Assembly (NCBI GenBank): GCA_964016885.1
Contig: OZ024755.1
Coordinates: 29,698,001-29,762,000 of the forward strand
Length of the DNA stretch: 64,000 nt
Source of the DNA: Eledone cirrhosa
Taxonomy: Eukaryota
Direction: 5' to 3'
Position 1 is the first letter of the stretch, and each line of letters begins with the position of its first letter. The notes under the pieces are model-generated. The model saw nothing but the letters and a program-made list of their open reading frames with translations, made no database searches and had not been told where the DNA came from. The translations under genes were made by a program, and so were the position numbers. This document shows, in pieces, positions 995-60,782 of this stretch.

Positions 995-1170
995 GAAAAT
1001 GTTTAACCCCGACGGCAGAGCTCAAGCCGTTTCGACGGCTTAGCCGTCGAAACGGCTTCAGCTCTGCCGTCGGGGTTAAACATTTTCCTATTACCCACTC
1101 GACTACCCTAAGTATTGAGTACTCTGGTGCGTTACAGTCCACCTGGTTCCTTACCACACATCCTTCGTTA
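995..1170 (+). mobile_element. PLE pLTR palindrome, family A (arms 995-1040/1042-1087, unpaired tail to 1170) containing the 3' half of a hammerhead
   Basis: 46-bp inverted arms with 1 mismatch around a 1-nt loop. Right arm reads GAAACGGC-loop-GCCGTC (stem III plus GUC). Homologous to 17612-17813 and 39170-39343. Flanked by (TA)n. Confidence 0.8.
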
Positions 1171-1223
1171 TCTATCTATCTATATATATATATATATATA
1201 TATATATATATATATATATATAT

Positions 1224-1520
1224 ATGTTATGTATACTTCTACTTATTCCTCGGAGAATTAACTGTTGTGTAACTACTTCTAAATATGTGTGTGGGTGTGT
1301 GTGTGAGAGAGAGAGAACACACGCACACCATTATATATATATATATATATATATATATTATGTATACTTCTACTTATTCCTCAGAATTAACTGTTGTGTA
1401 ACTACTTCTAAATATGTGTGTGGGTGTGAGAGAGAGAGAGAGAGAGAGAGAGAGAGAGAGAGAGAGAGAGAGAGAGAGAGAGAGAGAGAGAGAGAGAGAG
1501 AACACACGCACACCATTATA
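1224..1520 (+). repeat. Local direct duplication of a ~120-bp segment with internal (GA)n
   Basis: tatgtatacttctacttattcctc...aactgttgtgtaactacttctaaatatg...acacacgcacaccatta occurs at ~1228 and ~1359, separated by (TA)n. Confidence 0.8.
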
Positions 1521-1532
1521 TATATAGAGAGA

Positions 1533-1623
1533 GAGTTAAAGAATAGAGGTGTAACACACAAGTTATTATATATTGGTGAACGGAATAGAAAATGCTGACA
1601 AATTGTTCACAGTTGAAAAATGG
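1533..1623 (-). repeat. Dispersed ~90-bp repeat, probable PLE 3' tail; second copy at 60813-60903
   Basis: agttaaagaatagaggtgtaacacacaag...cacagttgaaaaatgg is nearly identical at both loci and both abut a microsatellite at the same end. Confidence 0.6.
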
Positions 1624-1854
1624 ACCTGTGTCATTTGGAGACGAGGTCATATATTTTATCGTTCCTGAGGTTTTTAACCCTAGGAAAGGAAAATGCTTCT
1701 CTGATGATCTTTGTTTTTCCATTAATATCCAAGTGATATCTAATGTTTTGCAAAGTGAAACTGTACAGTAAGGGCCATTTGAATAGGTAAATATTTATAT
1801 TATATTTTTTAATTTTGAAAAATTGGTTGAATTTTACTTGTTCTGCTTATCTTG

Positions 1855-1971
1855 ATATATATATATATGCATATATATATATATATGCATATATATATAT
1901 ATATATATATATATATATATATGCATATATATATATATATATATATATATATGCATATATATATATATATA
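1855..1971. repeat. (TA)n microsatellite with periodic GC interruptions
   Basis: Direct reading; same array type continues at 2758-3183. Confidence 0.95.
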
Positions 1972-2355
1972 TGTATAGATAAGAAATGTATAACCTGTAA
2001 AATAAGCCCCCATATTAACTGTAAAACTAGAAATGTAGTGTATAGCATAAGATGTACTGAAGGACAATGTAGAAATAAAAATATAGTGTACATAGGTGAG
2101 ACAGCTCGTAGTATAGGGGAACGGATAAATGAACACTGGCGAGACCTTCAAGATAATAAAGAATCATCTGTACTCTACCAACATGCTAAGATAGAACACA
2201 AGGGTAAATTAGAGAACATAGAAATAAGAATAGAATCTACACACAGAAAAGATGCAATGTTTAGACAAATTACAGAGGCAATAAACATAAAAGAATTACA
2301 ACCAAAATTAAATAGAAAAGATGAGTGGAACAGCAACATCACAACTTACAATTAA
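1972..2355 (+). pseudogene. GIY-YIG endonuclease domain of a PLE with upstream Cys motif (Neptune/Nematis-like); RT part missing
   Basis: CIDKKCITC...[13 protein letters not shown]...[16 protein letters not shown]...RQITEAINI...LNRKDEW. The N-terminus of ORF 1852..2355 is microsatellite read-through. Confidence 0.88.
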
Positions 2356-2552
2356 GGACAAAATGAAAACACACACACATAGAACAAACAACCAACCAAT
2401 AACATGTAAATAAATAAATAAATGAACATAAACACACACAGACACCCGGATGTGGCGCATGCGCAAACTGAGCACACAACACACACACAGAAACAAAATG
2501 GCGTAGGACAGAAAAAAAAAGGAGAGGCACAGAAACAAAGAAAGGAATCCCC

Positions 2553-2597
2553 AGTCACTGAAGAGGTCACAGAGTGTGTGACGAAAGGACTATGACT
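2553..2597 (+). ncRNA. Minimal type-I hammerhead ribozyme
   Basis: AGTCA-CTGAAGA-G-GTCAC(agagtgt)GTGAC-GAAA-ggac-TA|TGACT; stems I and II pair fully. Confidence 0.85.
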
Positions 2598-2757
2598 ATA
2601 TATAAACAACTATCTGGTTGTGGAACCAACCAACCAACCAGAAATTTATAAAATAAATTTATGAATTTGTAAATGTATAAATATATAATAAATTGAAGTG
2701 AAAGCAACTGGTGCGTGTGTTTCTTATTGGCAACATGACTCTCCCAAAGTATAACAA

Positions 2758-57668: not shown

Positions 57669-57711
57669 ATTAAACTGACGAAGTCGTTAATGAAAAGAAA
57701 ACTTATTTAAT
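57669..57711 (+). ncRNA. Hammerhead-like motif with decayed stem II
   Basis: ATTAAA-CTGACGA-agtcgttaatgaaaa-GAAA-act-TA|TTTAAT; 6-bp stem I. Confidence 0.5.
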
Positions 57712-58149
57712 CATTTTCGTGTGTTATAATTTACGCAAAAAAATGTCCCCAAAATTGATTAGATAAAAGTAATTTGAAAAACACACATAAACACAAAAAC
57801 ATAATCACAAAAACAAACTATTTTTCATTCATTATTTCTGGTTGTCATTCTCTCATATTATCTACTGCCTATTTATTTATTTATTTAGATATTTATATTT
57901 TTATTTTATATTCAATGAACGCCAACCTGAAGATTTTTGAATAAAGGAAGGAAAATCTTATTAACATAGTATGTAGAAGTTATTTTATGGATTCCCAAAC
58001 CTTAGAAAACGGTCATATCATTTCAAGCTGTATTAAAGAGTGTAGGTAGATAACAGAAGCTATTGTTTGCCGTATATATATACATATGAGTGTGTGTGTG
58101 TCTGTCTGTATGTGTGTCTGCTTGTGTTTCTGTATGTCTGTGTGTGTGC

Positions 58150-58510
58150 GTGTAAATATTCCACGTGCACACACGCACGCGCGCGCGCACGCACGCACAT
58201 GTACACACACAAATACGCACACACATGCAAATACACACATGTACACACACACACACGCAAATACGCACATACACACACACACTGAGTCACACAGAAATAT
58301 ACATAACTAAACGAACAGGCAAAGTTACATACATAGACACAAAGATACACGTATATATATATATATATATATATATATATATATATATGTTTGTGTGTGT
58401 GTGTAAATATTGCACGAGTGCACACACACACACGTACACACACACAAATATACATATAAGTAAACGAACAGGCAAAGTTACATACATAAACACACATATA
58501 CACGTATATA
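58150..58510 (+). repeat. Local direct duplication in low-complexity DNA
   Basis: gtgtaaatatt...taaacgaacaggcaaagttacatacata...tacacgtata occurs twice. Confidence 0.75.
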
Positions 58511-58681
58511 TGTGTGTGTGTGTTTATATATTTATTGCGTATTTATTAGGTTCGATTATGTACACCTAGTAACGAACACACACATACAAACACACACAAA
58601 GAGACAACTTTTTACTTGAAGACAGCGCGTGTATCTTTTGTCATCCATTATATTTATATATATATATATATATATATATAT

Positions 58682-58982
58682 ATAGTTATGTAATAAACAA
58701 CATAAGTTAATTATTTCATTTACCAGTGGTTTCTTGAAAGCAAACAAAATGTGCCTTCAATCATCAGAATGAAAAAATCCTGGTGTATTTATTGTCAATA
58801 AATACACCAGGATTTTTTCATTCTGATGATTGAAGGCAAATTTTGTTTGCTTTCAAGAAACCACTGGTAAATGAAATAATTATCTTATGTTGTTTATTAC
58901 ATAACTATTAAGCTCTGTAACCTACATAGAGCACTCTCTTTTTCTGGACTTTTCCTTCCGACTGAATTACTTCATTCACACA
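58682..58982 (+). mobile_element. PLE pLTR palindrome (113-bp arms centred on 58795, tail 58909-58982) with intact hammerheads
   Basis: 58682-58794 is the reverse complement of 58796-58908 (2 mismatches); flanked by (TA)n. Confidence 0.9.
58816..58876 (+). ncRNA. Intact type-I hammerhead ribozyme (mirror copy at 58714-58774 on minus strand)
   Basis: TTTCATT-CTGATGA-TTGAAGGCAAA(ttttg)TTTGCTTTCAA-GAAA-CCAcTGG-TA|AATGAAA. Confidence 0.92.
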
Positions 58983-58984
58983 CA

Positions 58985-59562
58985 TATATATATAACTATA
59001 TATATATATATAACTATATATATATATAACTATATATATATATATATATATATAACTATATATATATATATATAACTATATATATATATATATATATAAC
59101 TATATATATATATATAACTATATATATATATATATATATAACTATATATATATATATATATAACTATATATATATATATATATAACTATATATATATATA
59201 TATATAACTATATATATATATATATAACTATATATATATATATATATAACTATATATATATATATATATAACTATATATATATATATATATAACTATATA
59301 TATATATATATATAACTATATATATATATAACTATATATATATATATATATATATATATATAACTATATATATATATATATATATATATAACTATATAAC
59401 TATATAACTATATATAACTATATAACTATATATATATATATATATATATATAACTATATATATATATATATATATATATAACTATATAACTATATAACTA
59501 TATAACTATATATAACTATATAACTATATATATATATATATATATATATATATATATAACTA
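58985..59562. repeat. (TA)n array with periodic TAAC interruptions
   Basis: Repeated ataactata(ta)n units. Confidence 0.95.
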
Positions 59563-60407
59563 TTTCAATCATATCTTATTTTGTTTGACCCGTTTAGCTT
59601 GTTCGCTTTTTTGGCGAAGGTGGTTAATGGCTTCTTAACCATCGTCTCAGTTTGTATGACCATTTTAACTTATGTTTATAGCCCTTGTATCTTCATATCC
59701 ATGGAGCGCTTGTCTGCACACTACGGAAGTTGCGTTTCGCCAATTTCTACCCGCCGTAATGCGATTCTCGCTAAATTTATATATATATATACATATATAT
59801 ATATATATATGTGAGAAAAACCACAGACCCTCCATCGTAACTCTACTTTTGAAAAGCAGAAGAACTGCGAAACCGGTAAAGGAACCAAATAAATATATAT
59901 ATTTTTTTTAAAAATAAGACTCCAGTTGCATTTTCGATTTCATCTTTTTTTCTTTATACTTCCACTCGTGTAGGACACCTCGGTTATTTTTCATTTTTGT
60001 AAAAAAAACCTCACTTTCTAATATATAAATATATATATGCAACCCCGTTCTTCCCCCAACCCTTACTTTCACACACACACACACACACACACACACACAC
60101 ACACACACGTACACCTACACACCACCTTCAGCCCTCCCCGCTCGGACACCCCGTCTCCGTCTCCCCACTCCACCCGCCACCACCCCTACACACCCCACAC
60201 CCTTCCACCACCTGTTTTACTCCCCTTTTAATTTCAGTTTATTTTGATCATGCTTTTATATTCAAATTTATTTCATTCCTTGTATTTTGATCATGCTTTA
60301 TTTTTTAATTTTGTTTTTATTTTTTTTCATTCGCACCGTTTCCTTTCGCTATATGTCTCTCCACCAATCCTCTACACACCCTTTGAACTCTGTTCCCACA
60401 CACTTCT

Positions 60408-60441
60408 CACCTGAGGAAGGGCTTATGCCCGAAACGTCGCG
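60408..60441 (+). ncRNA. Minimal type-I hammerhead in a PLE 3' remnant (~60110-60531)
   Basis: cac-CTGAGGA-a-GGGC(ttat)GCCC-GAAA-CG-TC|gcg; followed by AATAAA and a tail ending at (TA)n. Confidence 0.78.
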
Positions 60442-60562
60442 TCCCACCAACACCCCACTCTCCAGAGCGTGAAATTAATAAACATTCGTTGTACTGCCTC
60501 TCTGTTTTGTCCCTGTTCAAATTTTTCCATTATATATATATATATATATATATATATATATA

Positions 60563-60782
60563 CGTTATTCCGGGTTGAATCGGAGGTAACCACAGTAAGT
60601 AAGGTACTCAATACATAGCAGAGTATAACAGTTTTAATATAGATGAGATTCTACAGGACTAGAACTGTTTCATTCATTAGAAATCATCAGGAATTCATTC
60701 ATTAGAATCATCAGGAGATTCCTGATGATTTCTAATGAATGAAACAGTTCTAGTCCTGTAGAATCTCATCTATATTAAAACT
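60563..60782 (-). mobile_element. PLE pLTR palindrome, family B (arms 60630-60694/60718-60782, duplicated central insert, tail 60563-60629)
   Basis: Inverted arms; homologous to 61767-61902. Confidence 0.88.
60716..60766 (+). ncRNA. Type-I hammerhead ribozyme
   Basis: AGATTC-CTGATGA-tTTC(taat)GAAt-GAAA-CAG(ttctagtc)CTG-TA|GAATCT. Confidence 0.8.

Follow-up and report, generated by a model that had tools for sequence, protein, structure and literature searches.

Palindromes in the window

The window, a 64-kb stretch of the Eledone cirrhosa genome, contains inverted repeats at all nine positions at which an earlier note had placed near-perfect palindromes. They are listed below with their tails and with a solitary element that serves as a control.

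995-1087, no strand: head-to-head palindrome of the Hydra-type PLE family F0; both arms hold the 3' half of a U3-A8 hammerhead
1088-1168, +: F0 tail spanning the proximal to the distal 3' end, then (TATC)n/(TA)n
1975-2770, +: solo 5'-truncated PLE of family F1 (control), ending at the proximal site; hammerhead at 2558
1975-2352, +: GIY-YIG C-terminus of the solo F1 PLE
11428-11812, no strand: F2 palindrome, Hydra-type; full hammerheads start at 11711 (+) and 11529 (-)
11813-11902, +: F2 tail
17604-17734, no strand: F0 palindrome; the turn falls in the apex of hammerhead stem II
17735-17811, +: F0 tail
17860-17891, -: tail of the 17892 family
17892-18106, no strand: palindrome of the 17892 family, Neptune-like; predicted hammerhead cut site at the start of both arms
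31036-31060, -: F12 tail, short and atypical, as the short arm stops ~24 nt ahead of the distal end
31061-31323, no strand: F12 palindrome, Hydra-type; variant hammerhead (CAGAAGA core) in both arms
39172-39231, -: F0 tail with an internal deletion
39232-39343, no strand: F0 palindrome, decayed (81%)
56245-56289, -: tail of the 56293 family
56290-56661, no strand: palindrome of the 56293 family, Neptune-like; degenerate hammerhead cores at 56519 (+) and 56432 (-)
58682-58908, no strand: F5 palindrome; full hammerheads at 58823 (+) and 58767 (-)
58909-58985, +: F5 tail
60563-60629, -: F9 tail
60630-60782, no strand: F9 palindrome, Hydra-type; 23-nt templated insert; hammerhead cores at 60722 (+) and 60690 (-)

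The description as near-perfect fits eight loci, where the arms are 92-99% identical (one mismatch in 192 bp at 11428-11812), but not 39232-39343, with 81%. Loops measure 1, 1, 5, 7, 3 and 1 nt in six loci and 23 nt at 60630; at 39232 and 56293, a clean loop was not definable. Every locus has a tail of ~25-90 bp on one side. The reported microsatellite neighbours are present as well: the short arm adjoins (TA)n in six of the nine loci, though the tract has just 3-4 units at 17604 and at 39343; in the other three, the neighbour is (CT)n, (ATAC)n or (GA)n. One family, F0, covers 995, 17612 and 39232, so that the nine loci represent seven families.

Two known types of element were considered and rejected. 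In a MITE or foldback DNA transposon, both TIRs end on the same element base and the length is fixed; here, the two ends are offset by the tail in 72 of 73 pairs and the lengths are variable. A non-LTR retrozyme consists of tandem monomers, each with a full hammerhead, while the nine loci are single inverted pairs; only the separate 311-bp family is built in this way.

It is extremely improbable that the palindromes are fold-back chimeras arising during library preparation or assembly. Palindromes next to (TA)n are a typical setting of such artefacts. However, the arms diverge by 1-19%, and the ends land on family-specific sites in 12 families. In addition, the contigs of run X1, possibly the source sample, hold many inverted-to-direct joints of the same family.

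Parent elements

The earlier note had proposed an origin from PLEs and had set the linking of families to ORFs as a check. The proposal is borne out: six of the seven families (eight of the nine loci) continue into PLE ORFs elsewhere in the genome, four of them Hydra-type and two Neptune-like. EN+ PLEs have an ORF with RT followed at the C-terminus by a GIY-YIG endonuclease, and an endonuclease of this type is reached by all six. RT was seen for F0 (a 784-aa ORF), F12 and the 17892 family; F2 (with the endonuclease C-terminus upstream at five loci), F9 and the 56293 family reach the endonuclease end only. The RT and endonuclease motifs of the parent ORFs were identified by eye. Pfam recognised GIY-YIG in the window fragment, the solo F1 PLE, and no family in the two full-length ORFs; a PDB sequence search with the F0 ORF gave no match. 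Partial tandems, or pseudo-LTRs, occur in which the tail runs into the next ORF. An F0 array with a period of ~3.5 kb has an ATG 93 nt past the distal end, and the F1 tail lies within the ORF start.

The seventh family, F5 (58682), gave no ORF match at three fetched loci and stands as a counter-point without a linked ORF. A 327-bp tandem derivative of it was found.

The F0 ORF resembles those of Hydra clade PLEs: it is short, has RWK-like (RWR) and DKT motifs, a CxCX5C linker, and CxxC and CxH at the endonuclease end, and lacks CCHH. F9 has the Hydra-type linker and terminal motifs, F2 and F12 have the terminal motifs, and insertion at (TA)n is again as in this clade. The CX2-5CxxC linker and endonuclease CCHH of Neptune and Nematis are found in the 17892 ORF and the 56293 endonuclease, which fits either clade. 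The seven families are thus unrelated by DNA, as had been claimed, but not by protein, since four are Hydra-type; the parents of 995 (F0) and 31061 (F12) share 53% amino-acid identity. The excerpts of Craig 2021 (PMC8557442) describe a Hydra clade with a small number of families, whereas a protein search gave 61,548 first-look candidates, related families included, in this one genome.

Hammerhead content

A hammerhead core, half of one, or adjoining sequence had been ascribed to each palindrome. This holds for all nine, although at 31061 and 56293 the cores are variant or degenerate. Type-I cores with stems I-III are present; those of F2, F5 and F9 are full and canonical, and F2 stem II shows compensatory changes at five pairs. 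The cores of F12 (CAGAAGA, 31194/31190) and 56293 (CCGAAGA, 56519/56432) depart from the type-I consensus. The arms of the three-copy family F0 contain the 3' half of a full U3-A8 variant hammerhead, with the core UUGANAA in 24 of 27 long copies and a three-way fold computed for one copy. An intron within this hammerhead was considered and discarded, because the 5' half of the hammerhead sits 43 nt upstream in the long copies. The 17892 palindrome starts immediately downstream of a U3-A8 variant cut site.

Full hammerhead motifs number eight in the window, compared with 0.17 expected (30 shuffles). In the genome sample described below, 50 of 160 motifs fall inside palindromes that total 27 kb, where 3.2 are expected; this 16-fold excess confirms that hammerheads are enriched among palindromes. 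No hammerhead was among the 150 of 349 Rfam matches listed, which were microRNA-type hairpins below threshold.

The predicted cut site lies uncut inside the arms at eight of the nine loci, and the suggestion that the palindromes derive from ribozyme-processed RNA is therefore mostly unsupported. Insertions that start at the cut site were found in the 17892 family only, at the window locus and at two of 30 others. From sequence, the hammerhead would appear to be a passenger of the pseudo-LTR that is usually uncut in the template.

Abundance in the genome

The genome was sampled in 139 evenly spaced 10-kb stretches; loci L001-L030, chosen by palindromic query, were excluded from all rate counts. 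(TA)n lies 3 bp or less from an arm in 90 of 145 sampled inverted repeats, versus 17 expected. The strict layout of a short arm and a long arm plus tail is found in 69 inverted repeats, or ~one per 20 kb. The claims of a stereotyped product and of microsatellite targeting are both borne out. By extrapolation, the genome total is ~150,000. At one per 7 kb, the window lies above this average. Sizes range from 30-bp stubs to 4-kb ORF-bearing pairs.

A distinct non-autonomous class, in which palindromic ribozyme-cut RNAs transpose as units, had also been put forward. The hammerhead enrichment would fit such a class, as would the many similar-sized F0 copies (a set selected by palindromic query), the three 17892-family insertions that start at the cut site, and the existence of genuine short tandem derivatives with 311-bp and 327-bp units. 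It is nevertheless largely refuted and very unlikely, since six of the seven families are the 3' ends of ORF-bearing PLEs, turn points and arm lengths vary from copy to copy, pairs reach 4 kb with an ORF, and the cut site is whole at all but one of the nine loci.

Two fixed 3' ends

Each family has two fixed 3' ends, proximal and distal, 30-170 nt apart, and the tail is the stretch between them. Solo copies have 58 proximal and 57 distal ends. In head-to-head pairs, by contrast, one proximal end is combined with one distal end in 72 of 73 classifiable cases from 12 families (p=8e-21 versus the free-choice ceiling of 50%); 26 further pairs, with one end not classable, were dropped. A cruder pairing method gave 83 of 104. 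Since the two arms of a pair almost always begin at different fixed sites, the pairs were likely made by both cut ends of a TA repeat, which would have primed the copying of the same RNA simultaneously.

Either arm can be the longer: the proximal in 27 pairs, the distal in 12, and neither (within 8 nt) in 33. In 28 F1 pairs, the length of one arm does not correlate with that of the other (rho 0.22, p 0.25), and single-copy loops reach 3.5 kb on either side. In some pairs, the distal arm consists of the tail only and nothing is duplicated, which gives a plain inversion.

Both arms share a haplotype. In 18 pairs, common polymorphisms are the same rather than different between arms by 103 to 7, compared with 1052 to 635 in random pairs, and rare shared variants occur at 3.5 per kb between arms versus 0.28 in random pairs. 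Five pairs have discordant sites between arms. Gene conversion between arms could also lead to a shared haplotype.

At the proximal junction, a TA match of at least 3 nt is found in 24 of 37 measurable cases (69 in all), versus 9.5% of element positions. One F12 copy is precisely spliced, having lost a 754-nt GT-AG intron retained in five unspliced copies, which indicates a sense template. Splicing is here deduced from genomic copies, and the case was spotted by eye; an automated intron-loss search, which missed it, found no GT-AG ends among 10 deletion events. Some families, among them F0, F9 and F12, have a 5' stop hotspot, while F1 does not (3/60); F2 and F5, with references too divergent, are left out of the 5'-end counts. 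Tail hairpins fold better than shuffles in only two of four families, which falls short of establishing a common RT-binding hairpin.

Probable asymmetric twin priming

Judged from genome footprints, the palindromes are probably short head-to-head PLE 3' ends that were inserted at microsatellites by asymmetric twin priming. The GIY-YIG endonuclease, probably as a dimer, would cut both strands of (TA)n. RT would be primed from one freed end at the distal site and from the other end at the proximal site, with a TA match of 2-5 nt assisting. The template of both would be a single sense RNA, or sister RNAs of one source locus, copied toward the RNA 5' end. The two cDNAs would end independently, and host repair would join them 5' end to 5' end, the twice-copied stretch becoming the palindrome and the excess the loop. 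In some families, the two cDNAs may end at one hotspot, in or next to the hammerhead, giving small symmetric hairpins; the best candidate for this hotspot, at about an even chance, is the RNA's own start. The footprints include no intermediate or empty site.

The main competitor is fold-back, in which a single cDNA (or antisense RNA, as suggested for rotifer PLEs) turns back and serves as its own template, the resulting hairpin being resolved by the endonuclease at the proximal site. Self-priming of this kind is proposed for PLEs in the excerpts of PMC3846280. Tiny loops, the shared haplotype and short templated inserts at some turns would all be expected from it. So would arms equal within 8 nt, as seen in 33 of 72 pairs. 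Fold-back should, however, always make the first strand the longer arm, yet both directions are seen, along with kb-sized loops and uncorrelated lengths. Furthermore, tail-only arms could not be copied from a tail-less cDNA, and the spliced copy indicates sense rather than antisense RNA. Fold-back is thus unlikely, though less so than the other alternatives. Twin priming from both (TA)n strands is preferred because of the one-of-each pairing, the greater length of either arm, the uncorrelated lengths and the single haplotype.

A more general proposal, for which the chances seem evenly balanced, is that PLEs integrate through a double target-primed reaction whose asymmetry is obligate. On a single RNA, a dimer would assign one cut strand to the distal site and its partner to the proximal site; short hairpins would result from run-off at the RNA 5' end, and the same machinery would insert retrozymes as well. 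If so, a single reaction would account for the inverted copy and the one-sided tail together, and would have left ~150,000 hairpin-forming, ribozyme-bearing inserts in the E. cirrhosa genome. If transcribed, so many long inverted repeats could potentially be a large source of double-stranded RNA.

Comparison with known systems

The inverted copy, the one-sided tail, the (TA)n target and the hammerhead are all published PLE features. Excerpts of Craig 2021 (PMC8557442), Arkhipova 2013 (PMC3846280) and Schostak 2008 (PMC2377424) describe insertions of EN+ PLEs in which a 5'-truncated copy is inverted and the tail one-sided, and attribute the inverted structures to endonuclease resolution or antisense self-priming. 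The E. cirrhosa insertions are similar in their head-to-head inverted copy, a tail often at one end only, a microsatellite target, a hammerhead in the pseudo-LTR and a tail overlapping the next ORF start. They differ from insertions described in these excerpts in being mostly cut down to arms of 30-400 bp, with tails mostly of 30-100 nt, and in the one-proximal-one-distal rule counted here. What appears new from the genome sequence is this mechanistic rule of two fixed 3' ends with one of each per pair. How PLEs come by their inverted copies and their tails is listed among the unanswered questions in the excerpts of PMC8557442. On this point, a sharp prediction for an existing in vitro system follows from the one-of-each rule, the arm lengths that vary independently and the shared haplotype, which together also speak against antisense self-priming as published.

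In that system, the anole Poseidon PLE protein cuts and extends both strands, uses two start sites that bound the tail, is modelled as a dimer and works without hammerhead cleavage (Frangieh 2024, PMC11167929). Its start sites are alike on both strands, with no homology at the start site (PMC11167929), which differs from the strict pairing and TA match in E. cirrhosa and counts against the twin-priming model. The two internal start sites bounding the tail, the cutting and extension of both strands and the dispensable hammerhead cleavage agree with the situation in E. cirrhosa. Poseidon belongs to a different clade, and the strand-to-site coupling and TA microhomology seen here are unreported there.

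In L1 twin priming, as studied by Ostertag and Kazazian in 2001, the second site is reportedly opportunistic and the two parts barely overlap. In E. cirrhosa, the second site is fixed like the first and the two parts overlap over a long stretch, so that a palindrome results. The two systems are alike in that the RNA is primed from both break ends and the 5' part becomes inverted, as L1 twin priming is described in the excerpts of PMC2246262.

Opposite-strand pairs of minimal hammerheads are described for Schistosoma in excerpts of Cervera 2014 (PMC4209133), and non-LTR retrozymes in those of PMC7229834 and bioRxiv 10.64898/2026.07.22.740005. The likeness lies in type-I hammerheads that face each other on opposite strands at distances of 100-700 bp and in the U3-A8 core variant; unlike retrozymes, the nine loci do not consist of tandem monomers. 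The E. cirrhosa genome does contain tandem 311-bp hammerhead repeats. This retrozyme family has the same two-site, head-to-head ends as the PLEs, an arrangement not described in the excerpts of these three sources, and the shared ends provide footprint evidence on the machinery that moves retrozymes.

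Palindromes in the window and across the genome

The palindromes belong to an already known kind of object: inverted truncated copies of Penelope-like elements (PLEs), with a tail often at one end and a bias towards microsatellites, are described in the accessible text of PMC8557442, which names the formation of these copies and tails as unresolved. Comparison of the window with itself recovered all nine inverted repeats of the earlier note, each with an unpaired tail on one side only. The near-perfect symmetry claimed there holds for eight loci (92-99%), while 39232-39343 reaches only 81%; likewise, six loops measure 1-7 nt as described, that at 60630 measures 23 nt, and two loci have no cleanly defined loop. 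The loci at 995, 17612 and 39232 share one family, F0. A further short, perfect inverted repeat around a (TA)17 tract (6167-6256) has a layout unlike the nine. A strict scan found 8 hammerhead motifs in the window versus 0.17 in 30 shuffles; an Rfam scan of the window had no hammerhead among the 150 of 349 matches listed.

The 3.0-Gb genome was sampled in 139 evenly spaced 10-kb stretches, which contained 145 inverted repeats (arms of at least 30 bp). The proposed adjacency to microsatellites was confirmed, since in 90 of the 145 an arm lies no more than 3 bp from (TA)n; 100 random placements gave a mean of 17 such cases and never more than 26. The strict layout of a short arm and a long arm plus tail was present in 69, and 10 were symmetric; palindrome arms had a median of 107 bp (range 33-1669). 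Extrapolation of the strict layout gives approximately 150,000 genome-wide, or one per 20 kb. The expected hammerhead enrichment is also seen: 50 of 160 hammerhead-like motifs in the sample fall in the 27 kb of palindromes, versus 3.2 expected, and 23 of the 69 palindromes carry a full motif.

Parent elements

Following long copies upstream linked six of the seven families to PLE open reading frames (ORFs), as had been suggested; no ORF was reached for F5 (58682) in three fetched loci. F0 is very abundant, forms tandem arrays of ~3.5 kb (L296, a fetched stretch), and its 3' end lies ~850 bp past an endonuclease stop codon in more than 10 loci. By-eye motif readings place F0 with the Hydra type, since its 784-aa ORF has RWR, DKT, CxCX5C, CxxC and CxH and lacks CCHH, the marks of this clade according to the accessible text of PMC8557442. 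By the same readings, Hydra-type endonucleases likewise lie upstream of F2 (11428), F9 (60630) and F12 (31061), and the families of 17892 and 56293 lead to ORFs that combine CCHH with a CX2-5CxxC-type linker, like Neptune/Nematis. Pfam, applied to three proteins, recognised only the GIY-YIG fragment at 1975-2352.

This fragment belongs to an eighth family, F1 (a solo copy at window 1975-2770; L230-L244), a young PLE family with 97-98% identity. It has 36,039 first-look candidates, inverted pairs of up to ~12 kb, and ORFs that are intact over more than 1000 aa and rich in Asn and Thr in their N-terminal region. F1 has the identical layout, from 30-bp stubs up to pairs with 4-kb arms; the short palindromes therefore lie at the lower end of a continuous size range of truncated insertions.

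Other solo PLE 3' ends or hammerhead motifs lie at 13730-13900, 17412-17603, 26408-26453, 30021-30960, 59809-60020, 60380-60530 and 61545-61900, and an abundant ~190-bp SINE-like repeat at 4209-4394, 21381-21572, 26112-26303 and about 15 more places. This repeat, taken together with the large size and (TA)n richness of the genome, may point to a resemblance to octopus genomes.

Further features of the window (reverse transcriptases read by eye from the ORF list)
13824 (-), hammerhead core in a solo region
~17482 (+), hammerhead core in a solo region
60411 (+), hammerhead core in a solo region
~61772 (+), hammerhead core in a solo region
15915-16214 (-), PLE-type GIY-YIG endonuclease fragment
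44402-44554 (-), PLE-type GIY-YIG endonuclease fragment
27454-29460 (-), LINE-type reverse transcriptase fragment
39931-41900 (-), LINE-type reverse transcriptase fragment
53842-55372 (+), LINE-type reverse transcriptase fragment

Hammerheads and their cut sites

Canonical hammerhead cores occur in F2, F5 and F9. In F2, compensatory changes affect five stem II pairs (16 copies), and the consensus fold placed stem I in a different register. The core reads CAGAAGA in F12, where all three stems are present, and is decayed in the family of 56293. F0 palindromes retain GAAA, stem III and the predicted cut site only. In long F0 copies the missing part lies 43 nt upstream and reads UUGANAA in 24 of 27 (excluding four regex rows that are palindromes rather than long copies), which is the U3-A8 variant noted in the accessible text of PMC4209133. 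Stem II of this F0 hammerhead is ~50 nt long, and for one copy the predicted fold is a three-way junction.

The earlier note derived the palindromes from ribozyme-processed RNA. This part finds little support: eight of the nine loci keep the predicted cut site within the arms, at distances of 40-140 nt from the turn in those measured, and those templates were therefore uncut. The turn coincides with the predicted cut at 17892 alone among the nine, and at 2 of a further 30 loci from its family, so that hammerhead cleavage may occasionally set a 5' end. The earlier interpretation as a whole is borne out in part, the palindromes themselves being confirmed.

Two 3' ends and their pairing

Every family examined has its 3' ends at two positions, one proximal and one distal, with the tail between them. 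A first pairing of arms gave 83 of 104 mixed pairs (one proximal and one distal end); among the remaining 21 are cross-pairs between neighbouring insertions and cases in which the reference ended short. When every arm was used once, with both ends classed and abutting a microsatellite (26 pairs dropped), 72 of 73 pairs in 12 families were mixed, where free choice allows at most 50% (p = 8e-21). Unpaired arms comprised 58 proximal, 57 distal and 40 unclassed.

This pairing rule probably reflects twin priming. In this reading, cDNA synthesis on RNA of one source would be primed by both ends of a cut (TA)n tract, one starting at the proximal and the other at the distal site, and the two truncated cDNAs would be joined head to head. 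These biochemical steps would be those of the anole Poseidon protein: in the accessible text of PMC11167929 it cuts and extends both strands, with two start sites that delimit the tail, is modelled as a dimer and works without the hammerhead. There, the start site did not differ between strands and showed no homology, whereas the footprints here differ on both points. At least 3 nt of alternating TA are common to element and target at 24 of 37 measurable proximal junctions (of 69), versus 9.5% of element positions.

The two arms of a pair are closely related. F1 arms of 18 pairs (one a tandem mis-pair) match at 103 of 110 common polymorphic sites, versus 62% in random pairs, and have 35 rare variants in common in 10.1 kb, versus 0.28 per kb; in all 12 matched F0 cases, the two arms carry one and the same subfamily signature. 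Gene conversion could have contributed to this similarity. Fold-back of a single strand accounts for the common haplotype and for small loops, but it leaves unexplained the long loops in both directions (up to 3.5 kb in F1, on either side) and the insertions whose distal arm is tail only, with nothing duplicated. F1 arm lengths are uncorrelated (rho 0.22; 28 pairs, excluding ambiguous and tandem-containing rows, many loci being chosen for endonuclease content). The mixed pairs comprise 27 in which the proximal arm exceeds the distal, 12 in which the distal exceeds the proximal, and 33 with equal arms (to within 8 nt).

Self-priming on antisense RNA has been proposed for head-to-head palindromes (PMC3846280, accessible text). 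One F12 copy (L094:1850-2245) has exactly lost a 754-nt GT-AG intron of the 3' UTR (compare L071:1375-2500), the donor of which is kept in five other copies; therefore, sense RNA can serve as template.

Arms have diverged from each other, and ends are family-specific. Contigs of sequencing run X1 contain many F0 inverted-to-direct joints, 15 of them listed and 38 more unlisted, with varied breakpoints; these weigh lightly against an artefact, because this run, of unrecorded kind, possibly represents the source sample itself.

Clustering of 5' ends

Many 5' ends lie within 12 nt of one point: 39 of 62 arms in F0, 17 of 29 in F9 and 13 of 44 in F12. No clustering was found in F1 (3 of 60 arms); F2 and F5 were outside the scoring. 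The sequence at this point is initiator-like; F9 and some F0 subfamilies, but neither F12 nor F2, have a TATA-like motif ~30 nt upstream of it. Because a start site and initiator are described for the Penelope pseudo-LTR (PMC2377424, PMC3846280, accessible texts), run-off at the RNA 5' end is the preferred reading, with about an even chance. Alternatively, splicing or a folding block possibly sets the point, which resembles a splice acceptor and lies at the hammerhead stem II apex in F0 and at stem I in F9 and F12.

Relation to earlier work and retrozyme-like repeats

Hammerhead pairs on opposite strands appear in the accessible text of PMC4209133. No proposal of twin priming or of a pairing rule for PLEs was found in the searched literature, which consists mainly of open-access papers and was judged mostly from listings and main texts; the supplements of PMC11167929 and PMC8557442 may bear on strand-to-site coupling. 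Within that scope, the pairing rule with its probable twin-priming reading is an addition, as are the PLE-like ends of a retrozyme family.

The unit of this retrozyme, repeated in tandem, is 311 bp long and contains a canonical type-I hammerhead (L063:4541-8371, L132:3851-9333, L080:8435-10000, L077:112-3603). In L063 and L132 it lies head to head in (TA)n with outer ends at two sites ~35 nt apart, resembling PLE pairs; a single end is seen in L080 and in L077. At L297:2540-3310, a 327-bp tandem derivative of F5 has the tail region joined directly back to the pseudo-LTR, and is possibly a retrozyme in the making.
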